The position numbers were made by a program, and so were the translations under genes. Positions 1 to 34,746 of a DNA stretch of 64,000 bases are shown here, in pieces. Under the pieces are notes generated by a model. It was not told the DNA's origin. It was given only the letters and a program-made list of their open reading frames with translations, and did no database searches. The stretch is from Victivallis vadensis (GTDB lineage Bacteria; Verrucomicrobiota; Kiritimatiellia; UBA8416; CAMCYG01): contig CAMCYG010000002.1 of the NCBI GenBank assembly GCA_945883775.1, forward strand, positions 3,512 to 67,511, in the 5' to 3' direction. How positions within the stretch are numbered: the first letter of the stretch is position 1; every line of letters begins with the position of its first letter.

Positions 1-752
1 GTGTAATTGCCAGTGGATAGCTCGGTAATACCGTCTGCAACCCAGTAGCTGGGAATCAGCGGATTGGAGGCAATGTTGAGGCCAGGTATAAGCCTGGAAA
101 GACTCAATTGCATGTCATCGCCCATCTGATGTGTCATGTGCGAAGCGAGAAAAGACGATGCAATGATTGCGCTGATGCTTAGAATAATTATTATCCTGAC
201 GAGTCTTATAGAAGGAAAAAATCTGACGGTTATAATAGTAAACAGCGCTCCTATTCCACAGCAGATGATTATAAAAGGGACAGAGAAAACGAATGTCCAG
301 ATGACCATAACAAGTGAAAGCTTCTCGTGGAAAGCATATGCTCCGATGAAGGGGATGATTACAAAATAGAACGCCCACGAAGAAAGCGCGGCTGCCTCAA
401 GAAATTTATAGATGACCAGGTTTCGAATCGACATTGGCCTTGAGAGAAGATCCGTGACCTCGCGTGATCTATACAGTGTTGTGTATGTAGAGACAATGCT
501 GGATACCGCAAGCATAATCCCCATGCCCAGGAAAAAAAGGGAAAAGAGCTTAGTAATGATCAAAAGCCCCACGCCGCCTAAGCGGTCCAGAAAGCTGAAT
601 GCGTCCAGAAATACCATGAACATTCCCGCTGTGAAAGCTGACGCAAAGGCACTAATGAACACTATCTTGAAGCGGGACTGTGTGCTCAAAATACGGAAAA
701 TGTTGCGGGTATTGTGCAGGTACTTCTTCAGAAGCGCCTTAATTATCGTCAT
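1..752 (-). CDS. ABC-2 family transporter permease. The gene is partial and its C-terminal part runs off the window start.
   Basis: Reverse-strand translation from an ATG at 752..750 gives MTIIKALLKKYLHNTRNIFRILS... with several hydrophobic helices and no stop before position 1. The start ATG overlaps the TGA of the upstream ATPase gene (ATGA coupling). The plus-strand ORFs 136-369 and 412-774 are antisense shadows of this gene. Confidence 0.75.
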   Translation of the reverse strand, partial: MTIIKALLKKYLHNTRNIFRILSTQSRFKIVFISAFASAFTAGMFMVFLDAFSFLDRLGGVGLLIITKLFSLFFLGMGIMLAVSSIVSTYTTLYRSREVTDLLSRPMSIRNLVIYKFLEAAALSSWAFYFVIIPFIGAYAFHEKLSLVMVIWTFVFSVPFIIICCGIGALFTIITVRFFPSIRLVRIIIILSISAIIASSFLASHMTHQMGDDMQLSLSRLIPGLNIASNPLIPSYWVADGITELSTGNY

Positions 753-1495
753 CAGCCTCTCCCTTCTATCGTAACATCATCGGCTGTGAGTTTCAGAAAG
801 GCATCTTCAAGGTCTTTTGCATTGTCCGCCATGCCTTTTAGTTGACTGACGTTTCCTAAAGCAATCACCTTGCCATTCAGTATGATGGCAATGCGATCAG
901 CTATATCCTGCGCCAATGCCAGTATATGTGTCGTGAGGAATATAGTTGTTCCAGATCTTGCTTTTTCGCGGAGAAGGTCTTTTATGAGTCGTATGGTGTA
1001 AGGATCTAGTCCTATGAGCGGCTCATCTATGAACAATATCTTTGGTTCATGAAGTAACGTTGCCGCATATATAAGCCGTTGCTTCATTCCGTGCGAAAGA
1101 TCCTTTATGAGATGGTGCCGGATGTCCATCAGGTTGAAAGTCCTGAAAAGTTCTTCATATCTCTGCCAAATAAGATCGTGAGGGATGGCATACAGATCGC
1201 CTATGAACTCAAAGTATTCTGATGTTGTAAGTCGGTCATAAAGGAATGGCATGTCCGGAATGTAGCCCGTGATTTTTTTTGCAGCTATCGGGTCCTTGCT
1301 GATGTCAATGCCGTGCAGTTTGATAGTGCCTGAAGTGGGGCGAAGGAGTGAAGTCATCATCTTTATTGTGGTAGTTTTCCCTGCCCCATTAGGTCCAAGA
1401 AAGCAGAAAAGCTCACCAGTTGGTACCGTAAGGCTTATATTGTCGACTGCCTTGTTCTTTCCGAAATGCTTGGATATGCCTGTTAACTCGATCAT
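752..1495 (-). CDS. ABC transporter ATP-binding protein (ABC-2 exporter type)
   Basis: Walker A motif GPNGAGKTT, an LSHGMKQRL signature, and a Walker B/D-loop FIDEPLIGLDP. It overlaps both neighbouring genes by 4 nt. Confidence 0.9.
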   Translation of the reverse strand: MIELTGISKHFGKNKAVDNISLTVPTGELFCFLGPNGAGKTTTIKMMTSLLRPTSGTIKLHGIDISKDPIAAKKITGYIPDMPFLYDRLTTSEYFEFIGDLYAIPHDLIWQRYEELFRTFNLMDIRHHLIKDLSHGMKQRLIYAATLLHEPKILFIDEPLIGLDPYTIRLIKDLLREKARSGTTIFLTTHILALAQDIADRIAIILNGKVIALGNVSQLKGMADNAKDLEDAFLKLTADDVTIEGRG

Positions 1496-2385
1496 TGTTC
1501 TATTCCTTTCAGAAAGGTTTCGATAAGCGCCTGAATGGACGTTTCATTAATGGTTGTAGACAGACCTTCCCTTTGTGTAGATTGTGCCTGCTTCTGGTTG
1601 CGAATTCTCGTCCAAGCCATGGCTTTTTCCATGGTAGAACGCTCCATTAACAGACCGAAGGGGCTGGTCTGGCGCACAATATCGCCGGACTGGTCAAGCC
1701 ACGAATGGAAAAGAAGGCCAGACGCCTTTGTCGCAATCAATGTGGCATTATAGGAAATACCGTCGTATTCAATATTTTCCTTTCGCAAGGCAGTCATGAC
1801 GATTTTACTTTTTTTCATTGTGAATGGATCGAGCGAGTTCAGCGTAATGCTCTGGCCTGGCTTCAGATTTCTTGTGAGTGTTCCGCCTGATGGGGTGAAC
1901 AAAACAGAGTCAGAAGGGATCGATATCTTGAATTTACGCACTATTCCTGTGGTAATCATAGACACATCAAAGTAACCAGCGTTAGATCTAGCGCCCTTAA
2001 GCGTCACAGGCATGTCTTCGACCCTGACTGTAAAGGTAAATTCATATAGATTGTAATGAGCATCCAGCAGAAACGTCGAATCAGTTGAAACGGTTATGCC
2101 GGCTGGATTTACCTCCAGCCACAGGTACATCTGATTTTCATTTGCGTAATATCGGCAGTTGTCCTTGTCGCTGATATTCCAGACATTGCGGGTGTATCCC
2201 ACCTGAACATCGTTCATTTTTATGGCCATCCATGATTCGCGGAGAAGGAGATTCCTTGGGATCAACGACTTATAACCATCCGCAGTCCCTGAGAAATATT
2301 CGGGATAGGCTTCGTGCCTGATAAGCCATCCTACAAGACAGAGCCATGTTGCAATTAATGCTATCCTGAGGATTACAGCTTTCAC
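1492..2385 (-). CDS. hypothetical membrane-anchored protein encoded just upstream of the ABC ATPase
   Basis: 297-aa ORF with an N-terminal hydrophobic helix (ILRIALIATWLCLVGWLI). I recognise no conserved catalytic motif. Overlaps the ATPase start by 4 nt; the upstream gene ends at 2388, 3 nt away. Confidence 0.6.
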   Translation of the reverse strand: MKAVILRIALIATWLCLVGWLIRHEAYPEYFSGTADGYKSLIPRNLLLRESWMAIKMNDVQVGYTRNVWNISDKDNCRYYANENQMYLWLEVNPAGITVSTDSTFLLDAHYNLYEFTFTVRVEDMPVTLKGARSNAGYFDVSMITTGIVRKFKISIPSDSVLFTPSGGTLTRNLKPGQSITLNSLDPFTMKKSKIVMTALRKENIEYDGISYNATLIATKASGLLFHSWLDQSGDIVRQTSPFGLLMERSTMEKAMAWTRIRNQKQAQSTQREGLSTTINETSIQALIETFLKGIEQ

Positions 2386-2387
2386 GA

Positions 2388-3629
2388 TTAATTTCTAACA
2401 TATGCGGCCAGTGCCGTTTCAATTTCGCCAAGCTCTTTATTGAGTTCTATCAATTCAGGTGACTTCTGATCTTTTGTCGAACTCATCATATTCGCTTCAT
2501 CTGTTTTGTATTGCTTACTAGCAATCTCCAGTGCCCGGACAAGTGCACTTTCTTGTCCTTTTAATGCCTGAAGTTTTTCCGTAAAAGACATTCTCGCTGC
2601 GCCGACAGCCTGGTCTCTCTTTGTCTGAAGCTCCTCGGATTTCTTCATATAGTCAGCAACATCTTTTTCAGCTTTAAGAAACGCATCTTTACTTGGTATA
2701 TTTATGGCAGGCTTAGGTTTCTTGGCATCCTTTGCCGTCTGCATGGAAATCTTGTGTAGTATGCGCGATCTTCGCGAAACAAGGCTCTTAAGATTAAAGT
2801 CACTAGCCGCTAATGATCCTGAGTGAATCTCAAGGTCATTCGTCTCAAAATCAGCGAGATACTTTTGTCCGCCAGGCATTATCACATTACACTCAGTAAG
2901 CGCATTTTCTCCGGAATTGAAAGATTTATTTACTTCAACGAAGGATCCGAGAGGTATTATAATTTGTCCCTCTGTTTTGGGCTTAATAATTGCGAGGCCG
3001 GGCGTTTTTACGATGCCCCAACGACTTACTGCTTTTTCTGCAGTATAGGACGGAGAAACAAGAGCAAGGTCTTCCTGTTCTTCGCGACGACTCTCTTCCT
3101 CTTTAAGAGATAGTCTGGCAAGCATGGGATGGTTCTTATCTTTTTTCGCGAGATCCTCCTTAAACCTGGATAAAAGCGCAACATTCTTCTTGCTGACAAG
3201 GCTGGCGGCAATAAATTCGTACCCAGCGTTATTGAAATCAGGACCATAGCCGTCGTTTATATGCAAACTGTTCACTTTTGCTTCGATGAAAGACGATATG
3301 AAATTACTTTTCCTGTACATTACTGGCAGGCCTGTTGCAATTTTATCCGCAAGATTTTTTGCACTATCGTAGTCATTCATTGATAATGCAGTCTGGATCA
3401 GAAGGCCGTACATCTTTTTGAGTGCGTAGGGGTAATGAGCGGCCCAGGTTTGGTATGTTTCAATAGTTCTTATACCATTGGTAAGGTCACCCTTTGAGAA
3501 ATATATCTCAGCTTCCTTGATCTTACTGATAGTGATATTATATCTTATGAGCGGGCTCAGAAGGAGCGTCAACATTATGCCACTCAACAGGATGCAGACA
3601 CTTACAATCACAGATTTCAAATAATTCAT
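2388..3629 (-). CDS. hypothetical membrane-anchored protein with a C-terminal coiled-coil
   Basis: 413-aa ORF with an N-terminal TM helix (VIVSVCILLSGIMLTLLL) and a charged heptad-like C-terminus (KSEELQTKRDQ...ELNKELGEIETALAAY). It sits between the small membrane protein gene and the 297-aa gene with gaps of 2 nt and 3 nt. Confidence 0.6.
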   Translation of the reverse strand: MNYLKSVIVSVCILLSGIMLTLLLSPLIRYNITISKIKEAEIYFSKGDLTNGIRTIETYQTWAAHYPYALKKMYGLLIQTALSMNDYDSAKNLADKIATGLPVMYRKSNFISSFIEAKVNSLHINDGYGPDFNNAGYEFIAASLVSKKNVALLSRFKEDLAKKDKNHPMLARLSLKEEESRREEQEDLALVSPSYTAEKAVSRWGIVKTPGLAIIKPKTEGQIIIPLGSFVEVNKSFNSGENALTECNVIMPGGQKYLADFETNDLEIHSGSLAASDFNLKSLVSRRSRILHKISMQTAKDAKKPKPAINIPSKDAFLKAEKDVADYMKKSEELQTKRDQAVGAARMSFTEKLQALKGQESALVRALEIASKQYKTDEANMMSSTKDQKSPELIELNKELGEIETALAAYVRN

Positions 3630-3630
3630 A

Positions 3631-3900
3631 TCATTTATCCGGCTTAAACATTGCGATAACCGCAGTCACACCTACTAAAATGCCGAAGCTCATATAGCCT
3701 GCTACATATGAATCGCCGTGCTGCAACATCACAGACCACCCCAATTTATAACAAAACAGATAAGCGACTATAAGCCCCGTTTTTGAAAATTTGAATACAA
3801 GACATAATGTTAGTGTCGCAATCACAATGGTCAGATCCATGGCAGGGATTGTAATCGACGCATTGGACACAATGTCAATGAATTGCTGATATTTACTCAT
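3631..3900 (-). CDS. small integral membrane protein of 89 aa
   Basis: Likely start is MSKYQQFIDIV, with the ATG at 3900..3898 overlapping the TAA of the upstream gene (ATGAGTAA). The protein has two hydrophobic helices. The first 27 codons of the tracked ORF 3631-3981 overlap the upstream CDS and are probably not translated. Confidence 0.55.
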   Translation of the reverse strand: MSKYQQFIDIVSNASITIPAMDLTIVIATLTLCLVFKFSKTGLIVAYLFCYKLGWSVMLQHGDSYVAGYMSFGILVGVTAVIAMFKPDK

Positions 3901-5368
3901 TTGCTGCTCCTTTGTGACCCTTCCTGTATTGTATGAATGGGACTCCGAACTGGGTGGCGATCTTCTTGTCAGCCAATCCAATGCCAGACTTGTCGAGAAC
4001 TATGTCGACGCCGATGCCATCCAAAGAAACGGTGCTGATTGCACCGTCCTTGTCCTTAATTGCAAAAAGATCATCAATGGATCGAATCGGTTGCCCATTT
4101 ACTGCCGTAACTATCTGGTTGTTAATGTTTTGGTAACCTATGTTTATGTCATCGGGTAGAACTGTGAGTATGAATACGACTTTCTGTCCGGGTTGAGGTG
4201 GATTATCATAGGCGGTGTTGAGCAAATAATTGAGTTTGTAGATATTAGAGCTCTCGGCCCTGGAACCCATAGCCTTCAGAAATCTTCCGCTTAATTCCCT
4301 GAATATCAAACCGCCTGTCACGAGATATTCAGAATCTTCGGGGCCATCCTCTTCCGGTATGTAATATTTATTATCATCGAAACGGGAGAGGGGAACTACA
4401 ACCACAACCTCCTTCTTGTCCCTCAGCACTTTAAAGACAGCAGTATCCCCATTTTTCTTGTATCCGTTGATTATGTAGGGAAAGAACAGTCGTCCAAGCA
4501 AAGGATCGTTGTAAAATCCTAAATTGTCGATGTCATAACCGTCTATTGAAAGGATGATGTCATGCAGTAGCAGTTTGCCGTTAGCAGGAGAGAAGGGCGC
4601 AGTCCCAAGCACCATAACGCCTTTGTCGTCAGGCACTCCAAGATATTTCCTAATAGACGGATCAAGAAGAAGCTTGCCCTTCAGTCCAGACGTAGGAATT
4701 CCTTCGTATGGGGCGGTTGCATAATCATCCATAAAACGCTTGAGGCTGGGGAACCCAATGATATCTATTGATTTCTGGCCGGACCCCGAAACAATACCCA
4801 GCAATCTATCACCGATGAAAACTGGACTTCCGATTCCATTAATGCTCAAGTCTGTCTGCACCTTATAGTTAATGACAAATACAGGAATCTGACTTTGCTG
4901 GTTTGCGGACACGAGGATTATGTCGCCATCGCCTGTCTGAAGCTTGGCTGTCTCATCAAACTGCATTATCGACACCTTGTCCTTCAATCCTGCCTTGTCT
5001 GCGAATTCGACCGGCAGTAAATTGGAGATTTTTGAATTGTCCTGAGCTGTTAACAGAGCAAGATTGCAGTCTTTATCAGAAAGCTCGACTTTGGCCGGTA
5101 TTTTTACTGCGGATTGAGCCTTCCTGACCTCTATCATTTTTGCGTTATGGACCAGTGATTCGACGGTCAGTATCCTGCCGCCCTGCAATAGTATTCCGTA
5201 TCCTCTGCGACTGGAGACAGGACCTCTTTGCCATGGAATTATTGGATTAGGGTCCTGAAACGTCACCAAAACTTCTACAATCCCTGTTGATTTGTCTTCA
5301 GGGGATGCGGCTATTACCAACGCCATGCTGACAAAGAAAAGAAGGATAACGGCGGACAGATATCTCAT
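3893..5368 (-). CDS. HtrA/DegP-like S1C serine-protease paralogue that appears catalytically inactive (pseudo-protease); signal peptide present
   Basis: Signal peptide MRYLSAVILLFFVSMALVIAAS. It aligns with the adjacent active protease, but all three catalytic positions are replaced: ILTNAHVV becomes ILTVESLV (His to Ser), HDCDISII becomes KDCNLALL (Asp to Asn), and GNSGGPIF becomes GIGSPVF (Ser to Ile in my alignment). The C-terminal region is similar in length to the partner. Its start overlaps the upstream gene by ATGA. Confidence 0.7.
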   Translation of the reverse strand: MRYLSAVILLFFVSMALVIAASPEDKSTGIVEVLVTFQDPNPIIPWQRGPVSSRRGYGILLQGGRILTVESLVHNAKMIEVRKAQSAVKIPAKVELSDKDCNLALLTAQDNSKISNLLPVEFADKAGLKDKVSIMQFDETAKLQTGDGDIILVSANQQSQIPVFVINYKVQTDLSINGIGSPVFIGDRLLGIVSGSGQKSIDIIGFPSLKRFMDDYATAPYEGIPTSGLKGKLLLDPSIRKYLGVPDDKGVMVLGTAPFSPANGKLLLHDIILSIDGYDIDNLGFYNDPLLGRLFFPYIINGYKKNGDTAVFKVLRDKKEVVVVVPLSRFDDNKYYIPEEDGPEDSEYLVTGGLIFRELSGRFLKAMGSRAESSNIYKLNYLLNTAYDNPPQPGQKVVFILTVLPDDINIGYQNINNQIVTAVNGQPIRSIDDLFAIKDKDGAISTVSLDGIGVDIVLDKSGIGLADKKIATQFGVPFIQYRKGHKGAANE

Positions 5369-6873
5369 TTCTTTTCCTCCAGATTCTCTGTCTTGGTAAT
5401 CGCGTAATTCGCAAAGATATCCTTGTCAGCCTTGTTCATTGCGTCCGCATCCATGATTAGGCATTCTTCGTTATTCATAAACTTTATTTTGTGGTAACCA
5501 CTGATAGGATGAGAGAATGCCTCTTTAGCCTGCTGCAAGTTGCCAATTCTCTTGCCATTGATCTCCTCGACAACGCCGTTGACATATTCTTCGTGATATG
5601 AGTTGACCTCATGCGGGAGCCGTTTAATCATGAGCACGAATTCGTCACGTCCGGCATACAGGCTGTCACGTGCTGTAAAAATGGAAATATAAGAAAGAAT
5701 GACTTTCTTTCTGTCTCCCTGGACGCCTGTACCAAGGCTTTCCAGAATCTCCCTGTTGAGCGGTGCGAAGACCAGTCCGCCTTTTATGAAGAAACGAGGC
5801 TTCTGGTCGTACAAGTTCCTGAAAACAAAAGGATTTGATAATTTCTTAAGCGGCACTTTGAACATTTGCCGTTTCCCGTCTCTGACTACATCCAGGGTGA
5901 CGGATTGTCCTACTTGCTTTCGCTCGAAAAGTTCGGAGAACTGGACAGAATAGCCTTCAAGGTTGATGGTGCCGTCATCGTATATCTTGTAACCGTCAAT
6001 GGACAGCACTACATCTTTATCTTTTATCGCGCCGAAGGCGCTTCCGAATGGATTAACATAGCTTACGACTATACCTGTTTCGCCCTCCGGTATGCCTAGG
6101 CTTCTCTTAAGGGCCTTATTTCTGAGTTCGAGGTATTCGATTCCAAACTCGGGATATTCATTATACTCACCGTCCTCGATATCTCTCATGAAATGCTGTA
6201 TCACCGGTAGCGGTATGCCATATCCTATATTCTCGCCTCTGCTAAAGCCTTGAAAAGCAATCCCGACGACCTTACTGCCCATAAAAATGGGGCCACCGCT
6301 ATTGCCTGGATTTATGGCTGCATCGACCTGCATGACCAGATGCTCGTCAACCATGCTGTGAGAATAAACACTGTAGTCCATGCGTGAGACTACGCCCTTA
6401 GTCAAAGATATTCGATCGCCTCCCATGGGATAGCCGATGACTATCACCTCATCATTAAGCTCAGGCATTTTCTCTGCAAGTTCCAGTTCAGCGAGCCCAT
6501 CGTAAAACTCAGGAGCATCGACTTCAATGATTGAGATATCGCAGTCGTGTCCGACATACTTTCGCTTTGCGGGATAACGTTTAGGGTCTCCGTCGCGTTG
6601 CACTTCAATGAACTTGGCATTCGATACCACATGTGCGTTTGTAAGTATCCGCTTGCCTGATATCAGAAAACCTGTGCCATTGCCCTTTCCAAGATGACCG
6701 CTCTGCCATGGAAGCAAATAGTTCTCGCTCTGCACTGTCACATAAATCTTGATGACAGAGGAACGAATCTTGCCGTAGGAGGTGTCTCTTGTAAAAAACG
6801 CAGCCCCTCCCGTTGACAAAGAAAGCAAAACAAAAAGACACAGCATTAAGGTCAGCTTGGATTGCTTATTCAT
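5365..6873 (-). CDS. periplasmic trypsin-like serine protease of the S1C/HtrA-DegP family with a C-terminal PDZ-like region
   Basis: Signal peptide MNKQSKLTLMLCLFVLLSLSTGGAA. Catalytic triad motifs are present: TNAHVV (His), HDCDISII (Asp) and GNSGGPIF (Ser). About 250 aa of C-terminal region is consistent with PDZ domains. Confidence 0.85.
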   Translation of the reverse strand: MNKQSKLTLMLCLFVLLSLSTGGAAFFTRDTSYGKIRSSVIKIYVTVQSENYLLPWQSGHLGKGNGTGFLISGKRILTNAHVVSNAKFIEVQRDGDPKRYPAKRKYVGHDCDISIIEVDAPEFYDGLAELELAEKMPELNDEVIVIGYPMGGDRISLTKGVVSRMDYSVYSHSMVDEHLVMQVDAAINPGNSGGPIFMGSKVVGIAFQGFSRGENIGYGIPLPVIQHFMRDIEDGEYNEYPEFGIEYLELRNKALKRSLGIPEGETGIVVSYVNPFGSAFGAIKDKDVVLSIDGYKIYDDGTINLEGYSVQFSELFERKQVGQSVTLDVVRDGKRQMFKVPLKKLSNPFVFRNLYDQKPRFFIKGGLVFAPLNREILESLGTGVQGDRKKVILSYISIFTARDSLYAGRDEFVLMIKRLPHEVNSYHEEYVNGVVEEINGKRIGNLQQAKEAFSHPISGYHKIKFMNNEECLIMDADAMNKADKDIFANYAITKTENLEEKK

Positions 6874-6884
6874 CCGAATTATTC

Positions 6885-7406
6885 TTAGATCGGAATGCTC
6901 GCGAATATCCCGTATTCGAGATCGCCCGCTTCAAAGTCAGACAGGTCGCTAAAGGACTCGAATGGATAATATGTCATGAGCGTTGTTTCGATGCTGCCAA
7001 ATTTATGTCCGAAACCGACAAATAGCTGATAGTACATATCCGCCCAATCCGATTCGTCATCATTACTGATATAGGGTTTGAGCACACCCACGCCGCCCCT
7101 CCATATTTTATCCTTAAGTATTAGATTGGCTTGAGGAGTCAATGCATAATCCATGTTTTCCATACCTTCTTTCGAGAAGTCGAAAGCGTAATCGAGAGCA
7201 AACTGCAATGCATAAGCATCGCCGGTGTCATGGACTTCATAAGACAGTGCATATGACATGTCCCCATCACCAAAAGGCAAATCGGTGTATATTGAGCTTT
7301 CGGCATGATATCTTACTCCGACTCCCACCATGTCAATGGCTGAAGTTGCCGCGAATACCTGCATGGTTGATAGCGCAAACAAAGCTATAACTAATGTCTT
7401 TTTCAT
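6885..7406 (-). CDS. secreted protein with a signal peptide, possibly a small 8-strand outer-membrane beta-barrel
   Basis: Signal peptide MKKTLVIALFALSTMQVFAATSA. The mature protein has alternating hydrophobic/aromatic strand-like segments (VGVGVRYH, YALSYEV, YALQFALDYAF, MYYQLFVGFGH). A GGGAGG Shine-Dalgarno lies upstream of the ATG. It is the first gene of the operon. Confidence 0.55.
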   Translation of the reverse strand: MKKTLVIALFALSTMQVFAATSAIDMVGVGVRYHAESSIYTDLPFGDGDMSYALSYEVHDTGDAYALQFALDYAFDFSKEGMENMDYALTPQANLILKDKIWRGGVGVLKPYISNDDESDWADMYYQLFVGFGHKFGSIETTLMTYYPFESFSDLSDFEAGDLEYGIFASIPI

Positions 7407-7777: not shown

Positions 7778-9493
7778 ATGCCGTCAAACAGGATACTGAT
7801 AAAATCAAGTAACGGCGGTTGGCTGAGTTTTTCCGGGGCAACATCCGTACTCAGGGCGGATAGTCCAGCCCAAATTGGGGAAGTTCTTAAACAAATAGAC
7901 AAAGCCTGCAATGAAGGATTCTTCGTTGCAGGCTTTATTTCTTATGAGGCGGCGGTCGGAATAGATGACCACTATAGCAACCATACCCTCAAAACGCTAC
8001 CTTATGCCTGGGTGGGGATATATCGTCAATTTAGCGCTGTTGATGATATCTTTGCGGGGACCGCGCCGGCTGATAGACTAGATTGGCGACCCTCAATTAG
8101 CAGGTCTGATTACGACTCAGCTATATCAAGGATCAAATCCTATATAATGGCAGGCGACACCTACCAGGTGAATTATACTATAAAGTTTCTGGCTAAGTTC
8201 GCTGGCAACCCTTTCTCACTCTTCCGAAGCATGCATGACGCGCAGCCTTCCATATATTCCTCTTATATCGAAACCGATGATTTTGCCATTATTTCAGTCT
8301 CACCGGAGCTATTCTTTGAGAAAAAAGGAAATCACCTGCTAAGCAGGCCCATGAAAGGTACGGCCAAGCGAGGGCTCTATCTTGAGGCCGATAACAAGGC
8401 GATAGAGAATCTCCGTAATAGCGAGAAGAATCGAGCCGAAAACGTCATGATTGTAGATATGATAAGAAATGACCTTGGCCGGATTGCGGAGAAGGGGACT
8501 GTGCAGGTGACAAGCTCCTTTGATGTAGAACGACATCCCACTGTCCTGCAGATGACCTCAACCGTAGAGGCTGAATCCTGCGCTGGAGTTGGCGACATCA
8601 TGCGGGCGATGTTTCCGTGTTCATCCATCACAGGTGCGCCTAAAGTCAGGACGATGCAGATTATTAAAGAACTCGAGCTACAGCCAAGGGGTATCTATAC
8701 GGGCGCGATCGGCTATGTTGCGCCGGGCGGTGATGCGCGGTTCAGCGTGGCTATAAGGACTGTGAGCATTGATAAAGCCTCCGGCTCAGCTGAGTACGGA
8801 ACCGGTGGGGGCGTAGTGTGGGACTCCATTGACGAGAGCGAATATCAGGAGTGCGTGTCGAAAGCGCTGGTCCTTAACACTCCGGCTCAGGACTTTGCAC
8901 TTATAGAAACATTATTGTGGCGCAAAGACACTGGATATTTTCTACTCAAAGAGCATGCTGAACGCATGGCGAATTCATCAGTTTACTTCTCTTACCCGTT
9001 TGATGAAAAAATGTTTCACCATGTAACCTCACAGGAAATTGCAAGTTTTACCTGCGACATGCGTGTCCGCGTCATTCTAGACCGTAACGGCAGAATCACT
9101 AGCGAAAGCCGGCCGATGCCGCAGACAAGACCAATGAAGGTTGCTCTATCCGACACACCCGTACACAGCGAAAACGTTTTTCTATATCATAAAACCACTA
9201 ATCGCTCTGCCTATGCCGAGGCCCTAAAGGAAGGATATGATGATGTTCTGCTGTACAACGAACGAGGAGAACTCACGGAGTCAACTATAGCCAATATTGT
9301 CCTGGAGATTGACGGCAAGAAGCTGACTCCGTGCCGTGATTCAGGGCTCCTTAATGGTGTGTATAGACGACATCTGTTGGAAAAGAACGAGATTACCGAG
9401 GCAGTCATAAGGATTGAAGATCTCGAACGTGCCCAAAAGGTCTGGTTGATAAACTCAGTCAGAGGCTGGATTGAAGTACATATTGCAAAGTAA
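7778..9493 (+). CDS. pabBC: fusion of aminodeoxychorismate synthase component I (PabB-like chorismate-binding domain) with aminodeoxychorismate lyase (PabC, fold-type IV PLP enzyme)
   Basis: The N-terminal ~350 aa carry chorismate-utilising enzyme motifs (SPELFF, MKGTAKRG, IVDMIRNDLG, SSITGAPK, GIYTGAIGY). The C-terminal ~200 aa have class-IV aminotransferase/ADC lyase features (FALIETLLW..., LYNERGELTESTIANIVLEI..., GVYRRHLL). Confidence 0.8.
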   Translation: MPSNRILIKSSNGGWLSFSGATSVLRADSPAQIGEVLKQIDKACNEGFFVAGFISYEAAVGIDDHYSNHTLKTLPYAWVGIYRQFSAVDDIFAGTAPADRLDWRPSISRSDYDSAISRIKSYIMAGDTYQVNYTIKFLAKFAGNPFSLFRSMHDAQPSIYSSYIETDDFAIISVSPELFFEKKGNHLLSRPMKGTAKRGLYLEADNKAIENLRNSEKNRAENVMIVDMIRNDLGRIAEKGTVQVTSSFDVERHPTVLQMTSTVEAESCAGVGDIMRAMFPCSSITGAPKVRTMQIIKELELQPRGIYTGAIGYVAPGGDARFSVAIRTVSIDKASGSAEYGTGGGVVWDSIDESEYQECVSKALVLNTPAQDFALIETLLWRKDTGYFLLKEHAERMANSSVYFSYPFDEKMFHHVTSQEIASFTCDMRVRVILDRNGRITSESRPMPQTRPMKVALSDTPVHSENVFLYHKTTNRSAYAEALKEGYDDVLLYNERGELTESTIANIVLEIDGKKLTPCRDSGLLNGVYRRHLLEKNEITEAVIRIEDLERAQKVWLINSVRGWIEVHIAK

Positions 9494-9534
9494 TCTAACC
9501 TTGTTTATATTAATTTCATTAAAAGGGAGAAGTT

Positions 9535-10923
9535 ATGTTAAAATACAATAAAGGGTGGAATACATTCGATTTTGATTCTTACAGCATTCATCTGGATAAT
9601 CCCAGTGAACCCATGCTTTTTAAGGACGTTTTTCCATACGATGAGGTGCCGCGTATCGGATTCAATCATAGGCTCACACCAATGCACATGCCTGATGATA
9701 TATGGATTACTGACACCTCGTTTCGAGATGGCCAGCAGTCAATGCCGCCATATACAGTAAAACAGGTTGTTGACCTTTATAGTCTTCTTCACAGACTCGG
9801 CGGACCGAAAGGCATCATAAGACAATCCGAATTCTTCCTGTATACGAAAAAAGACCAACAGGCTATCGATAAAGTTAAATCTCTGGGTTATCATTTTCCT
9901 GAAGTGACAGGTTGGATAAGGGCACACAAGAAAGATCTTATGCTGGCCAAGGAATTGGGCATGAAAGAGACAGGCATCCTGACATCAGCCTCAGATTACC
10001 ACATCTACCTGAAGCTGAAAATGGATCGAAAGCAAGTGATTGAGGAGTACACCGCAATTGTCAAAGAAGCGCTCAATCTTGGTATTATTCCAAGATGCCA
10101 CTTTGAAGATGCCACACGGGCCGATTTCTACGGCTTTGTCGTTCCGTTTGCCCATGAACTGATGAAGATAGCGACTGATGCCAATTCTATGATCAAGATC
10201 AGGGTCTGCGATACACTTGGTTTGGGCGTGCCGTATCCTGGCGTTGCCATGCCGCGATCGGTACCAGGTCTTATTTACGGGCTTGCTTACTATGCAGGCG
10301 TACCAAGCGAGTGGATGGAATGGCACGGGCATAATGACCTGCATCTTGTGACTGCAAATGCTGTAACTGCGTGGCTTTACGGATGCAGTGCCGCGAATGG
10401 AACTATCCTCGGAATAGGAGAGCGGACTGGTAATCCATCAATAGAAGGTTTGATAATGGCTTATTTGCAACTCAGAGGGAATGATGCGCAGATAGATACA
10501 ACCGCCATAACCGAAATCGCCCAGTATTTCGAGAAAAACCTTCATTTCAATATACCATCCAACCTGCCGCTGGTAGGAAAAGATTTTAATATGACCAGGG
10601 CTGGGATTCATGCAGACGGCTTGCTCAAAAATGAGGAAATATACAACCTGTTTGACACAAAGAAAATTTTAAATAGGCCGATCGAGATTCAGATAACTGA
10701 CAAGAGCGGCGTGTCAGGCATTATACTTTGGATACATAACATGATAGGCCGTGGAGCGTCTTCGCTGTTGTCAAAGGACAACCCAGGCATCATAAAAATA
10801 AATAAGTGGATCAAGCGTCAGTATGATTTAGGACGTACTACGAGTATCAGCGATAAGGAGATGTTCAAGCTGGTCAAGCAGTATCTCAAAGATTGGATCA
10901 AGGAGAGCGGTTTTGCAATATAA
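9535..10923 (+). CDS. DRE-TIM metallolyase of the HMGL-like, 2-isopropylmalate/homocitrate/citramalate synthase family
   Basis: Motifs ITDTSFRDGQQS and HGHNDLHLVTANAVTA are typical of LeuA/NifV/CimA-type aldolases. An AAGGGAG Shine-Dalgarno is present. The specific substrate cannot be told from sequence alone. Confidence 0.7.
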   Translation: MLKYNKGWNTFDFDSYSIHLDNPSEPMLFKDVFPYDEVPRIGFNHRLTPMHMPDDIWITDTSFRDGQQSMPPYTVKQVVDLYSLLHRLGGPKGIIRQSEFFLYTKKDQQAIDKVKSLGYHFPEVTGWIRAHKKDLMLAKELGMKETGILTSASDYHIYLKLKMDRKQVIEEYTAIVKEALNLGIIPRCHFEDATRADFYGFVVPFAHELMKIATDANSMIKIRVCDTLGLGVPYPGVAMPRSVPGLIYGLAYYAGVPSEWMEWHGHNDLHLVTANAVTAWLYGCSAANGTILGIGERTGNPSIEGLIMAYLQLRGNDAQIDTTAITEIAQYFEKNLHFNIPSNLPLVGKDFNMTRAGIHADGLLKNEEIYNLFDTKKILNRPIEIQITDKSGVSGIILWIHNMIGRGASSLLSKDNPGIIKINKWIKRQYDLGRTTSISDKEMFKLVKQYLKDWIKESGFAI

Positions 10924-11458
10924 GGTGCTGACATACGGTAATAGCGAACTTCGCAAAAAGGCAGTGCCTGTCAAGAATGTTGACGATGACATCAGGCGGA
11001 TTGCCAAGGATATGGTCCGTACGATGTATGAGAATAACGGACTTGGTTTAGCGGCTGAGCAGGTAGGCAGAACTGAATCTATATTTGTCGTGGATGTAAC
11101 GCCGGTTGTAAACAGCAGCAAAGGAGCAGAAAAGATTCCCGACGGTCTTGAAATGCCAGCCGTGTTTATAAATCCTAAGATCGTTGAGACCGTAGGTGAG
11201 ATATGCGAGAAGGAAGGGTGCCTTAGTTTTCCAGAAATTTTTATTACAATAAAGAGGGCTAGCTGCATTAAGGTGTCGTTTCTCGATCTGCAGGGCAGGG
11301 AACGGTTGATTACCGCCGAAGGCATTCTTTCCAGAGCAATACAGCACGAGAATGATCATTTAAACGGTAAACTACTCTACGACCACATGTCTACTATTCA
11401 AAAGGTAGCCTTTTCTGGAAGTCTTAAGAAGCTTAAGCAACTAAGCAAGAAAACTTAG
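10913..11458 (+). CDS. def: peptide deformylase
   Basis: The three PDF motifs are present: GLAAEQVG, EGCLSFP and QHENDHLNG. Confidence 0.9.
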   Translation: MQYKVLTYGNSELRKKAVPVKNVDDDIRRIAKDMVRTMYENNGLGLAAEQVGRTESIFVVDVTPVVNSSKGAEKIPDGLEMPAVFINPKIVETVGEICEKEGCLSFPEIFITIKRASCIKVSFLDLQGRERLITAEGILSRAIQHENDHLNGKLLYDHMSTIQKVAFSGSLKKLKQLSKKT

Positions 11459-11498
11459 CCTGCTTTGCTGCGCGAGCTAATCTCTAAAGACACACCCT

Positions 11499-29245: not shown

Positions 29246-29269
29246 TTGGGCTATCGGCTATATTAATCA

Positions 29270-29398
29270 CGTCTTCAGGAACGGGTGAGCAGAAATTGCA
29301 AATCCCGACCGGCGGTAAAGCCCGCGACTCCCTGAGTAACCAGGGACTGATTCCGGTGGAATTCCGGGGCCGACAGTAAAGTCTGGATGGAAGAAGGC
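29270..29398 (+). ncRNA. FMN riboswitch aptamer (RFN element)
   Basis: Conserved RFN blocks are present: AAATCCCGACCGGCGGTAAAGCCCGCGAC, GGTGGAATTCCGG, GCCGACAGTAAAGTCTGGATGGAAGAAGG. The P1 strands are TCTTC and GAAGA. It sits directly upstream of ribBA. Confidence 0.9.
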
Positions 29399-29418
29399 AT
29401 TGTCTGGCTTGTACTTAT

Positions 29419-34355: not shown

Positions 34356-34746
34356 AGTGTGATATTTATCGGTGGAGGGATTGGTCGCTCCGGCTTGCCG
34401 GAGAGGAAAGTCCGGACTCCACAGGGCAGGATGTCCCCGGTTGACCGGGGAGGCTTTCTGGCAATCGGAAAGTACGGATAGTGCCACAGAAAACAGACCG
34501 CCCCGAGAGCAATCGAAGGGTAAGGGTGAAAAGGTGGTGTAAGAGACCACCGGGTCATCAGTGATGATGGTCGCAAGGCAAACCCCTCCGGAGCAAGATC
34601 GAATAGGAAACTTGAGGTGGCCCGCCTCTGGCAGATACGTTAAATCGTGCTGTCGAAGTTTCGGGTAGATCGCAATAGATAAATGACCGACACAGTAAAA
34701 TGTGAACAGAATCCGGCTTATGGTCTCTGCTGATAAATATCACATC
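34356..34746 (+). ncRNA. rnpB: RNase P RNA (bacterial type A)
   Basis: Universally conserved blocks are present: GGAAAGTCCGGACTCCACAGGGCA (P4 5' strand), AGGGTGAAAAGGTGGTGTAAGAGACCACC (P10.1/P11), and ACAGAATCCGGCTTA (P4 3' strand). The 13-bp P1 helix is formed by TGTGATATTTATC (34358-34370) and GATAAATATCACA (34732-34744). The element starts 2 nt after the stop of the upstream gene. Confidence 0.9.

Follow-up and report, generated by a model that had tools for sequence, protein, structure and literature searches.

An active Deg2/Deg9-type HtrA protease and its co-inherited paralogue without catalytic residues: a candidate partner subunit in bacteria

Introduction

HtrA/Deg proteases are central to protein quality control in the envelope and in organelles, and the way they are regulated through oligomer switching serves as a model. 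The window analyzed here, a stretch of 64,000 nucleotides from Victivallis vadensis, encodes two HtrA-like proteins in tandem, an intact upstream copy (act) and a downstream copy (psi) without catalytic residues. The locus raises the question of why a dead copy is kept directly behind a live one. An earlier note on this DNA had proposed a retained pseudo-enzyme rather than a decaying pseudogene. We found no published description of the psi family; proteins of this type currently bear the annotation "hypothetical protein" or "PDZ domain" and could be wrongly labeled as proteases by automated pipelines, which a corrected annotation would prevent.

Organization of the gene pair

Both genes are on the minus strand, where the earlier note had placed them, as two separate ORFs in different frames.

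5365..6873, minus strand: act, active Deg2/Deg9-type HtrA protease, 502 aa (ORF, Pfam, PDB relatives)
3893..5368, minus strand: psi, degenerate full-length Deg2/Deg9-type paralogue without catalytic residues, 491 aa (ORF)
5365..5368, minus strand: ATGA overlap, with the psi start codon on the act stop codon (sequence read)
5306..5368, minus strand: predicted Sec signal peptide of psi, residues 1 to ~21, MRYLSAVILLFFVSMALVIAA (hydropathy 3.09, model)

The two genes overlap by 4 bp, as the note had stated, because the junction reads ...AAG AAA TGA for act and ATG AGA... for psi. The asserted paralogy along the length was borne out by BLASTP (27% identity over ~443 residues, E = 3e-39), which is far beyond chance, and the quoted motifs were all found, namely TNAHVV, DCDISII and GNSGGP in act and LTVESLV, DCNLALL and INGIGSPV in psi. 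At each N-terminus, charged residues precede a hydrophobic segment of signal-peptide type (maximum 10-residue Kyte-Doolittle hydropathy of 2.97 in act and 3.09 in psi), which agrees with the claim that psi has its own, predicted, signal peptide. In the psi model, the N-terminus forms a helix (residues 4-18) and then a low-confidence linker (14-26). Both proteins are predicted to be exported to the periplasm.

The domain order of act is a predicted signal peptide, a trypsin-fold protease domain, PDZ1 and PDZ2 (Pfam PDZ_3). The Pfam matches were Trypsin_2 (1.9e-24; Trypsin matched too), PDZ_3 (PF17815, 2.3e-21) and PDZ_2 (1.3e-7), and its best relatives in the PDB were Deg2 and Deg9 (E 7e-77 to 1e-73). 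The catalytic residues of act are encoded as follows.

6631..6633, minus strand: catalytic His81 codon in TNAHVV (His in 62/62 complete upstream orthologues)
6538..6540, minus strand: catalytic Asp112 codon in DCDISII (Asp in every upstream orthologue covering the column)
6298..6300, minus strand: catalytic Ser192 codon in GNSGGP, the L1/oxyanion loop (Ser in all upstream orthologues)

The residues G-N-S-G-G were 98-100% conserved within the active family. With the His81/Asp112/Ser192 triad, the GNSGGP motif, the two-barrel trypsin fold and the PDZ domains, act has the features of an S1C endopeptidase; psi shares the two-barrel fold and the PDZ domains but lacks the triad and GNSGGP.

Loss of the catalytic machinery in psi

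The positions concerned in psi are the following.

4718..5287, minus strand: degenerate trypsin-fold domain, residues ~28-217 (Deg9 alignment; two β-barrels in the model)
5156..5158, minus strand: Ser71 codon, former catalytic His position (alignment)
5063..5065, minus strand: Asn102 codon, former catalytic Asp position in the NLALL motif (alignment)
4832..4834, minus strand: Ile179 codon, former nucleophile Ser position (alignment)

An alignment of 128 sequences confirmed the loss of all three triad residues in the downstream copy, with His81 replaced by Ser71, Asp112 by Asn102 and Ser192 by Ile179. Alignment to HtrA structures showed psi and Deg2/Deg9 to be in register over the full length of psi (HMMER against Deg9, E 2e-37 over residues 28-437; Foldseek TM 0.82-0.87), and a search for relocated catalytic residues across 178 family members revealed none intact elsewhere. 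The former His column of the psi family contained D, E, S, Q, N or A, with His in only ~6%, and the former Asp column contained Asn (74%), Gly (12%) or Asp (11%; n = 178). Two or more triad residues were retained in only 5 of 178 de-duplicated psi sequences and the full triad in none of the family members.

The loss extends beyond the triad. The oxyanion-hole motif G-N-S-G-G-P of act is N-G-I-G-S-P in psi (GNSGG to NGIGS), and the column frequencies of this oxyanion/L1 motif dropped to 17-58% in the psi family. Conservation of the S1/L1/L2 loops and the oxyanion-hole glycines has gone, and the mean column conservation of the catalytic C-terminal barrel was 0.37 in psi vs 0.74 in act, while the difference was smaller for PDZ1 (0.47 vs 0.59) and PDZ2 (0.44 vs 0.53). 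The Trypsin models of Pfam missed the psi protease domain, and only the PDZ domains were matched. Thus, neither the triad nor the oxyanion hole survives in psi, and the activation and substrate loops of its protease domain are gone as well. The best explanation of these sequence changes is that psi is a pseudoprotease unable to cleave peptide bonds.

Retained fold, PDZ domains and cage-lock residues

The AlphaFold2 model of psi (pLDDT 86.1) superposed on the protomer of the Deg2 hexamer (4fln) with a TM score of 0.82-0.87 and an rmsd of ~3 Å over ~471 columns, and the TM score was only ~0.45 against DegP/DegQ (Foldseek). The elements kept outside of the catalytic site are listed below.

5231..5236, minus strand: Pro45-Trp46 of loop LA, equivalent to Trp-134 of Deg2 (99% in psi, 100% in act)
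4379..4711, minus strand: PDZ1, residues ~220-330 (Pfam PDZ/PDZ_2)
3938..4357, minus strand: PDZ2 (Pfam PDZ_3), residues ~338-477 (PF17815, 6.1e-21)
4310..4327, minus strand: Tyr348-Leu-Val-Thr-Gly352-Gly353, internal PDZ2 ligand strand and β-turn (conservation)

In PDZ1, the binding-loop motif Y-x-G-x-P-x-x-G was kept (Y221 89%, G223 90%, G228 90%), with the loop glycines at ~90% in both families alike. The second PDZ domain was of the Deg2/Deg9 type, since PF17815 matched both proteins and the PDZ2 sheet of the psi model was followed by extra C-terminal helices (431-441 and 460-474). In the locked Deg2 hexamer, loop LA is docked to PDZ2 by Trp-134, which stacks on Tyr-440 of the internal ligand strand; this strand is followed by a sharp turn at Ala-444-Gly-445 (PMC3481350). 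The psi counterparts of the strand and turn were conserved as Tyr/Phe (98%), Gly352 (93%) and Gly353 (99%), with similar values in act, so that the equivalents of W134, Y440 and A444-G445 stood at 93-100% in both families, as judged from sequence and from the overall superposition of the model. Psi therefore retains all three domains of the fold, the binding loop of PDZ1 and the Deg2 cage-lock residues (loop-LA Trp, ligand Tyr and Gly-Gly turn). Because the docking of loop LA onto PDZ2 is intramolecular in Deg2, this retention demonstrates a Deg2-like protomer and not a hetero-complex.

Psi has also acquired invariant residues of its own, mostly in the PDZ domains. Around 70 columns of the psi family were conserved at ≥70%, including D98, D281, Y286, G292, E358, W371, G411 and Y412, which are absent from the active family. 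Of these, E358, W371, G411 and Y412 belong to PDZ2, and D281 (89%), Y286 (83%) and G292 (97%) belong to a psi-specific PDZ1 hairpin, I-D-N-L-G-F-Y-x-D-P-x-x-G-R. At the column of the Deg2 interface residue Asn-332, act sequences had Asn (95%) and psi sequences mostly Asp (78%), a systematic difference that hints at heterotypic contacts between act and psi.

Conservation, origin and selection of the pair

Among the 66 loci of the genome scan, 62 held both genes besides the window locus; they came from Kiritimatiellia, Lentisphaerae, Verrucomicrobia-type MAGs and one member of Leptospiraceae. In all loci whose sequence reached far enough upstream, the gene immediately preceding psi was of the active type and in the same orientation, and the residues H-D-S were present in 62/62 complete upstream copies, while the full triad was present in 0 of ~66 downstream copies. 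The inactive copy was full length wherever the sequence sufficed (62 loci), and no truncated or frameshifted psi was found away from contig ends in more than 60 genomes. The genes overlapped by 4 bp in 37/62 orthologous loci and by 1 bp in 5 more. The pair was the only universally conserved neighborhood across deeply divergent clades.

The degenerate copies formed a single clade, split from the active ones with a bootstrap of 100/100 (NJ tree, 174 and 40 sequences). An exhaustive profile search gave 1470 matches at E ≤ 1e-30; of the 150 best cluster representatives (50% identity), ~140 were degenerate, and the family thus spans at least ~140 such clusters. The pair arose once, long ago, and was inherited as a unit. 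The identity matrices of act and psi correlated at r = 0.986, a value expected from shared phylogeny alone.

The dN/dS values (NG86) of psi ranged from 0.07 to 0.27 with a median of 0.18 (0.179), near the median of 0.12 (0.119) of act, as calculated from 169 locus pairs that are phylogenetically non-independent. Psi is therefore under purifying selection, as a separately encoded inactive paralogue in the manner of ClpR. The structure alignment, the orthologous loci and the dN/dS values all supported the pseudo-enzyme view of the earlier note. Given selection on the pairing in ~60 related genomes, the dead copy is no gene in decay and is best read as a functional partner without enzymatic activity.

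Comparison with known systems

By sequence and by structure, act and psi are most closely related to Deg2 and Deg9 (4fln, 5il9), which share their three-domain architecture with its unusual second PDZ domain (PDZ_3), as well as, in Deg2, the hexamer-locking loop-LA Trp, the PDZ2 ligand Tyr and the Gly turn. Deg2 and Deg9, however, are eukaryotic, reside in organelles or the nucleus and form active homo-oligomers, whereas act and psi are bacterial, predicted to be periplasmic, and form an obligatory gene pair with one member devoid of catalytic residues. The Deg2 cage is hexameric and that of Deg9 octameric; the psi model is that of a monomer.

In DEG7 and yeast Nma111 (Ynm3), an active HtrA unit is followed by a degenerate one in the same order, each with two PDZ domains. 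This layout resulted from a whole-gene duplication, and the degenerate domain of DEG7 mediates trimerization (PMC3194040). Up to four PDZ domains and both protease domains are in one polypeptide in these proteins, while act and psi are two ORFs. No fused protein of ~1000 aa was present among the best 150 family representatives, which were single-unit with one matched stretch each, the full-length ones of ~480-590 aa. No DEG7/Nma111 chain appeared among the PDB matches of the psi profile, and only remote matches (P0019, P0020) contained the DEG7-type PDZ_1 (PF12812). The pair looks like a parallel invention of the DEG7 architecture rather than its ancestor, and as a bacterial form without fusion it provides a point of comparison for the possible evolution of DEG7/Nma111. 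Loss of the stop codon at the 4-bp overlap would create the DEG7 architecture.

The concept of a degenerate-triad HtrA protein working with an active one is shared with MamO/MamE (and MamE1/MamE2) of magnetotactic bacteria, for which a selective pressure to pair active with inactive proteases has been concluded (PMC4794232). Since such pairing is already documented for magnetosome proteins, psi extends a known principle and establishes no new one. MamO/MamE come from another HtrA clade and occur only on magnetosome islands. The hosts of the psi family are PVC-type bacteria that are not magnetotactic; the family itself is of much greater age and size, and its members retain both PDZ domains as well as the cage elements of Deg2. 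The NCBIfam MamE model gave 60.6 bits for act against a cutoff of 800 and nothing for psi, and the neighbors of the pair in the window included no magnetosome genes.

Separately encoded dead paralogues also serve as structural subunits of self-compartmentalizing proteases in the case of ClpR, part of the ClpP core of cyanobacteria and plastids, and the inactive β subunits of the eukaryotic 20S proteasome (PMC3194040). These have unrelated folds and are ATP-dependent, and their incorporation is experimentally established, whereas for psi it is inferred only. Deg5 and Deg8 of the thylakoid lumen have a trimer-plus-trimer arrangement; both keep their catalytic triads and belong to the Deg1-type subgroup, not the Deg2/9 type. 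They are paralogous HtrA proteins working as a hetero-hexamer complex (PMC3640471).

Proposed role of psi

We favor, with a probability of roughly 0.55, the view that psi is a selected obligate companion of act and its periplasmic partner, probably within a Deg2-like cage. A hetero-oligomeric cage, suggested in the earlier note, would fit the retained cage-locking residues and the translational coupling. The overlapping stop and start codons would give roughly 1:1 synthesis of act and psi, after which both would be exported to the periplasm and assemble into one cage. By analogy with Deg2 and with the Deg5 and Deg8 trimers, its most likely form would have a trimer of inactive psi on top of an active trimer. 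Mixed trimers would be less likely because psi has lost the L3/LD relay loops, through which neighboring protomers activate each other. In the cage, psi may bind substrates by its PDZ domains, act as a gate, or regulate access to only three active sites, resembling the role of ClpR for ClpP and of the degenerate domain for Deg7.

The full picture for PVC-type bacteria, in which an obligate two-gene HtrA has its active trimer capped by a dead, PDZ-bearing trimer to make a Deg2-like sealed cage, is tentative and falls somewhat short of an even chance. To our knowledge, HtrA proteases have so far been described as homo-oligomers or hetero-oligomers of active subunits. If true, the capped cage would correspond, among HtrA proteases, to ClpP/ClpR and would parallel in bacteria, with free-standing subunits, the fused architecture of DEG7/Nma111. 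The dead subunit of the cage would control the entry of substrates and halve the number of active sites. The psi family is large, old and so far unannotated, and a live partner always accompanies the dead copy. It therefore offers a natural setting in which to ask how a cage protease benefits from non-catalytic subunits, a question also raised by ClpR, proteasome β subunits and the degenerate domain of DEG7.

Psi might instead be an independent periplasmic chaperone or holdase that forms its own homo-oligomeric Deg2-like cage without binding the active enzyme, its co-expression with the protease being due to a common role of the two in protein quality control of the envelope. HtrA chaperone activity persists without the catalytic serine, as established for DegP, and psi retains every element of the Deg2-like protomer and cage together with the PDZ1 binding loop. 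A dual protease-chaperone activity has been reported for Deg2 (PMC3481350). The retained cage-lock residues are equally serviceable for a psi homo-oligomer. A free-standing chaperone, however, needs no fixed link to one particular protease gene, while the pair is the only universal neighborhood and usually has overlapping stop and start codons; the Asn/Asp difference at the Asn-332 column also speaks against this view as a hint, not proof. We regard it as unlikely.

Also doubtful, and ranked next, is a transient regulator or adaptor in trans that activates or inhibits act or delivers substrates to it, or a protein with a new ligand-binding function. MamO, which promotes MamE-dependent proteolysis (PMC4794232), provides the model, and the psi-only invariants cluster in the PDZ domains and in the hairpin beside the PDZ1 peptide groove, as such a function would suggest. 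On the other hand, the 1:1 translational coupling and the complete retention of the cage architecture are more in line with a stoichiometric subunit than with a regulator present in catalytic amounts, and the surface di-histidine metal site involved in MamO function has no equivalent in psi, with no conserved His in its protease domain (maximum 24%).

It is very improbable that psi is still an enzyme with non-canonical catalytic residues. Approximately one fifth of the family keep Ser at the nucleophile column (in E-N-S or D-N-S triads), and the 98%-invariant D98 lies four residues before the former catalytic Asp, but in psi of the window the nucleophile position is taken by Ile, and the protease domain of the family has no conserved Ser, His, Cys or Lys (maximum Ser 51%, n = 178). 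In addition, the oxyanion-hole glycines and S1/L1/L2 loops are unconserved, and the Trypsin models miss the domain. A decaying duplicate, which the somewhat faster evolution of psi could suggest (mean pairwise identity 0.39 vs 0.49 for act; omega higher in 156/169 comparisons), is refuted by its full length without frameshifts in more than 60 genomes, an omega of ~0.18, a monophyletic and ancient family, the ~70 conserved columns and a confident predicted fold.

Neighboring genes

The genes next to the pair are accessory.

6885..7406, minus strand: up173, small secreted protein, 173 aa, 11 nt ahead of act (ORF)
3631..3900, minus strand: small membrane protein gene, 89 aa from the ATG at 3900 (sequence read)
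2388-3629, minus strand: membrane/coiled-coil protein, 413 aa (ORF)
1492-2385, minus strand: membrane-anchored protein, 297 aa (ORF)
752-1495, minus strand: ABC-2-type ATPase (ORF; DrrA/GldA-type model matches)
1..755, minus strand: ABC_tran_2 (PF16949) permease, N-terminal ~250 residues, the gene running past the window edge (translation)

Up173 had no match in Pfam or NCBIfam, and it is conserved in only a subset of loci, with homologues upstream of the pair in ~15 loci by phmmer and 10 in stricter BLAST clustering. The first 8 nt of the small membrane protein gene are shared with the end of psi, and homologues of this protein (88-119 aa) were downstream of psi in ~10 loci. The genes at 752..3629 belong to the same tightly packed run as the pair, and this module followed the pair in only ~12 loci. 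A full-length orthologue of the permease (L001:8424-10100) matched PF16949 at 2.2e-101.

Gene pair and its relation to Deg2/Deg9 proteases

The two genes were encoded on the minus strand of the window as follows:

5365..6873, minus strand: act, the active upstream protease, an ORF of 502 aa adjoining psi head to tail
3893..5368, minus strand: psi, its degenerate downstream paralogue, an ORF of 491 aa

At their junction (AAG AAA TGA with ATG AGA), the act stop and the psi start share ATGA in the window sequence, and the 64-kb window contained no further Deg-like ORF. In a pairwise protein comparison, act and psi aligned with E = 3e-39 and 27% identity across ~443 residues, and they are clear paralogues. 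The motifs TNAHVV, DCDISII, and GNSGGP of act were replaced in the same alignment columns of psi by LTVESLV, DCNLALL, and INGIGSPV, with the triad residues His81, Asp112, and Ser192 of act corresponding to Ser71, Asn102, and Ile179 of psi in the family alignment. Pfam matched Trypsin_2, Trypsin, PDZ_2, and PDZ_3 in act and PDZ domains only in psi, for which NCBIfam returned only the Do-family model at 35 bits, below threshold. Both N-termini resembled Sec signal peptides in hydropathy and are predicted as such. The tandem pair, motifs, triad loss, signal peptides, and ATGA overlap, which an earlier note had read from the DNA, were borne out in all details by the ORFs, alignment, Pfam, and hydropathy.

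Act matched the Deg2/Deg9 chains at E values of 7e-77 to 1e-73 and other HtrA-family chains, including DegP/DegQ, at ~1e-21 or weaker. Psi reached the Deg2/Deg9 chains at 2e-37 to 2e-29 as a single sequence in HMMER, and its family profile reached them at 3e-71 to 4e-68. Judged from these sequence comparisons, the nearest kin of both proteins is the plant Deg2/Deg9 subgroup and not DegP, DegQ, or DegS. Psi was modelled with AlphaFold2 from an 18-sequence alignment (mean pLDDT 86.1, pTM 0.79), and the model was superimposed on the protomer of the Deg2 hexamer with TM 0.82-0.87 and rmsd 2.8-3.5 Å over ~471 columns, on Deg9 with TM 0.78-0.84, and on full-length DegP/DegQ with TM of only ~0.45. 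By its superposition on the Deg2 protomer, psi is modelled with all three domains, protease, PDZ1, and PDZ2, arranged as in Deg2.

Conservation of the pair

The initial database search gave a dozen psi homologues with 36-42% identity, and the triad was absent in all of them. A genome scan, using one genome per species and the family alignment as query, returned 66 loci. About 44 of these, at 33-39% identity, belonged to MAGs labelled Kiritimatiellia, Lentisphaerae/Victivallales, 'Verrucomicrobiota', or PVC; about 21, at 24-26%, to Verrucomicrobiales, Limisphaerales, and Pedosphaera-type MAGs, some with implausible labels (Klebsiella, Akkermansia); and one to a Leptospiraceae MAG. In all loci with sufficient upstream DNA, the psi-type gene was immediately preceded, on its own strand, by an act-type gene, and both genes were present in 62 loci. 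When the triad columns were read, His-Asp-Ser was found in 62/62 complete upstream copies and the full triad in none of the ~66 downstream copies. The two genes overlapped by 4 bp in 37 of the 62 loci and by 1 bp in five, and most others lay within ~14 nt of each other. No truncated or frameshifted psi was seen away from contig ends in the scanned loci.

When 1.84 billion cluster representatives were searched exhaustively with HMMER, 1470 matched at E<=1e-30. Since only five of the best 150 of these matches carried His-Asp-Ser, all near the bottom of the ranking, the psi family comprises at least ~140 clusters at 50% identity among the best 150. The full-length family members in this set were single-unit proteins of ~480-590 aa. 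Family members are annotated at source as 'hypothetical protein' or 'PDZ domain'.

Several irregular records were encountered. The act-type gene was split into two ORFs beside an intact psi partner in two MAGs (L009:16-1563 and L046:9004-10564), which could reflect misassembly, a frameshift error, or genuine disappearance of the active copy. Loci from MAGs labelled Klebsiella sp./K. pneumoniae or Akkermansia muciniphila were nearly identical in type to Pedosphaera/Limisphaerales loci; the mislabelled-looking loci were L050, L051, L054, L058, and L065-L067, as well as L043, L062, and L064, some of them labelled Proteobacteria or Gemmatimonadales, and the odd labels look like taxonomy-label or binning errors in public records. 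One homologue of 659 aa (P0010), on a 4-kb contig, had a ~170-aa N-terminal extension with TrkA_C/CitMHS transporter Pfam matches, which probably arose because the gene call ran on from the gene upstream, and not by a true fusion.

Selection and origin

The dN/dS ratios were calculated by the Nei-Gojobori method for 169 pairs of closely related loci, which are not phylogenetically independent of one another; the median for psi was 0.179, with values from 0.066 to 0.268, and that for act was 0.119, with values from 0.037 to 0.209. Purifying selection on psi is clear and only slightly relaxed relative to act. After de-duplication at 80% identity, 214 sequences were placed in a neighbour-joining tree, in which 174 degenerate sequences split from 40 active ones with a bootstrap of 100/100. 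This split rules out repeated independent triad losses in this family and indicates a single ancient duplication with loss of activity. The identity between act and psi inside each locus was 20.5-26% throughout. The pairwise-identity matrices of the two proteins across loci correlated with r = 0.986, which is consistent with strict co-inheritance, although shared phylogeny predicts the same.

The earlier note had regarded psi as a retained pseudo-enzyme rather than a decaying pseudogene and had pointed to orthologous loci and dN/dS as checks. Its view was upheld by the intact ORFs beside the active copy in the loci with both genes, by the dN/dS values, and by the monophyly of the family, which together rule out decay.

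Residues lost, kept, and gained in psi

Conservation was compared residue by residue between 178 psi and 42 act sequences. All three triad residues were gone in psi. The most constant change by a wide margin was that of Asp to Asn, found in 74% of members. Roughly one in five members had Ser at the nucleophile column, without His and Asp; examples were E-N-S, D-N-S, and A-N-S, as in the representatives P0013, P0015-P0018, P0057, and P0069. The Verrucomicrobiales-type clade had an invariant E-N-W together with its own motifs LTTAEELSD, DYHANLAVL, and MQxVGWAEPL. The G-N-S-G-G oxyanion loop and nearly all other columns with ≥90% conservation in the act protease domain were decayed, including the segments G-Y-P-x-G-G, T-x-G-x-V-S-R, and A-F-Q, which, from their counterparts in other HtrAs, we take to be the LD, L3, and L2 loops.

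Mean column conservation in the act and psi families
Region; act; psi
Protease N-barrel; 0.67; 0.46
Protease C-barrel (catalytic); 0.74; 0.37
PDZ1; 0.59; 0.47
PDZ2; 0.53; 0.44

In the protease domain of the 178 psi sequences, no Ser, His, or Cys was conserved, the maximum being 51% for Ser and 24% for His. Because of this, and because the modelled fold is in register with Deg2/9, catalytic residues displaced elsewhere in psi, a possibility raised in the earlier note, were ruled out. Psi is not an active S1C peptidase, since it lacks both the triad and the oxyanion hole.

The two families share three conserved features. Loop LA retains its P-W (99-100%); ahead of PDZ2, a strand with Tyr/Phe (98%) leads into a Gly-Gly turn (93-100%); and PDZ1 begins with a Y-x-G...G loop (~90%). 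In the Deg2 crystal structure, PDZ2 has an internal ligand strand that ends in the Ala-444/Gly-445 turn and whose Tyr-440 forms a stack with Trp-134 from loop LA; this stacking fixes the protease domain to PDZ2, giving the rigid protomer of a sealed hexamer (PMC3481350). In the alignment, the residues retained by psi are exactly those that lock the Deg2 protomer. With its architecture and these cage-lock residues, psi falls within the Deg2/Deg9-type structural subgroup.

Other positions were invariant or characteristic in psi only. D98 (98%; codon at window 5075-5077, minus strand) precedes the former catalytic Asp column by four residues; at the D98 position itself, the active family has Ala or Gly. 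D281, Y286, and G292 are located in an extra β-hairpin beside the PDZ1 peptide groove, with the motif I-D-N-L-G-F-Y-x-D-P-x-x-G-R, and E358, W371, G411, and Y412 in PDZ2. The column matching Deg2 Asn-332, which belongs to the PDZ1 consensus contacting PDZ2 of the opposite trimer (PMC3481350), contained Asn in 95% of act and Asp in 78% of psi sequences.

Proposed role of psi

Our results showed that psi is an ancient Deg2-type protein, maintained by selection and devoid of catalytic function, whose gene always accompanies that of an active paralogue and is usually translationally coupled to it. In the reading that we favour, with a probability of about 0.55, act and psi would both be exported in amounts of ~1:1 and would act together in a hetero-oligomeric Deg2-like cage, in which psi may use its PDZ domains for substrate capture, gating, or regulation. 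In the established allostery of HtrA proteases, protomers are activated by their neighbours through loops, and the paralogues Deg5 and Deg8 assemble trimer on trimer. Since psi has lost these activating loops and in view of the Deg5/Deg8 assembly, separate trimers of psi and of act, the former stacked on the latter, would be likelier than mixed trimers.

The complex of act with psi is one that we infer, and this leaves some room for psi as an independent homo-oligomeric chaperone, an alternative we consider rather improbable. Slightly less probable still is that psi, like MamO, serves as a transient activator or adaptor, for which the MamO precedent and the invariant residues specific to psi would speak. 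Cryptic catalysis is very improbable given the missing Trypsin match in Pfam, the decayed oxyanion loop, and the lack of a conserved Ser, His, or Cys in the protease domain. Least credible is a decaying pseudogene, which the intact ORFs, dN/dS, and neighbour-joining split refute.

The pair of act and psi has parallels in known systems. DEG7 combines an active and a degenerate unit, which arose by whole-gene duplication, and its degenerate domain mediates oligomerization; in 2011, its authors stated that an inactive Deg domain on a separate gene was not yet described (PMC3194040). Act and psi together resemble DEG7/Nma111 in having one active and one degenerate unit but are two genes and not one polypeptide; no fused DEG7-like relative occurred among the best 150 of the 1470 psi-family matches, and psi, being unfused, is not a DEG7/Nma111 protein. 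In ClpR with ClpP, a cage protease likewise has a dead subunit with a gene of its own. Among bacterial HtrA proteins, MamO/MamE and the MamE1/E2 duplicates are also active/inactive pairs, from which Hershey et al. inferred selection for pairing active with inactive HtrA (PMC4794232). Psi is not a MamO, since its family lacks a conserved His and differs in clade and gene context.

No description of the psi family was found in a literature search, which was not exhaustive. We rate psi as a new, large, and old pseudoprotease family and an instance of an established principle. The pairing principle is already known, and the hetero-complex that we infer is the key mechanistic step; the pair offers an unusually clean bioinformatic case and an experimentally accessible system.

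Gene neighbourhood

The pair lies in an apparent eight-gene operon at window 1-7406 on the minus strand, as suggested by genes that overlap or nearly abut:

6885-7406, minus strand: up173, a small secreted protein (predicted), 11-nt gap to act
5365-6873 to 3893-5368, minus strand: act to psi junction, 4-nt overlap
3893-5368 to 3631-3900, minus strand: junction of psi with the small membrane protein gene, 8-nt overlap
3631-3900, minus strand: small membrane protein, 89 aa, 1-nt gap to p413
2388-3629, minus strand: p413, membrane/coiled-coil protein, 413 aa, weak TPR signal in orthologues, 2-nt gap to p297
1492-2385, minus strand: p297, membrane-anchored protein, 297 aa, weak sub-threshold DUF3108 matches in orthologues, 4-nt overlap with the ATPase gene
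752-1495, minus strand: ABC-2-type ATPase, overlapping the permease gene
1-755, minus strand: PF16949 'ABC_tran_2' permease, continuing beyond the window edge

Pfam and NCBIfam gave no match above threshold for up173, the small membrane protein, p413, or p297, and a promoter/terminator scan gave no enrichment over shuffles. Homologues of up173 were found by phmmer upstream of the pair in ~15 loci. The module from the small membrane protein to the permease occurred in ~12 loci of the window's subclade (e.g. L001, L003, L004, L024, L041, and L048) and was absent from other clades. Because of this restriction to one subclade, and because only act and psi were universal in neighbour clustering, the ABC-exporter module was ruled out as a core component; act and psi alone form the unit, and the module is a lineage-specific association.

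On the opposite flank of the operon (7778-14126), the genes look like ordinary housekeeping genes, as judged by reading translations and not by family search:

7778-9493, plus strand: aminodeoxychorismate synthase/lyase-like fusion
9535-10923, plus strand: isopropylmalate/homocitrate-synthase-like gene
10913-11458, plus strand: peptide deformylase-like gene
11499-14126, minus strand: aminopeptidase N-like gene

Two housekeeping RNA elements unrelated to the pair were also present on the plus strand, an FMN riboswitch at 29267-29402 (89 bits) and a bacterial class A RNase P RNA at 34369-34737 (221 bits).
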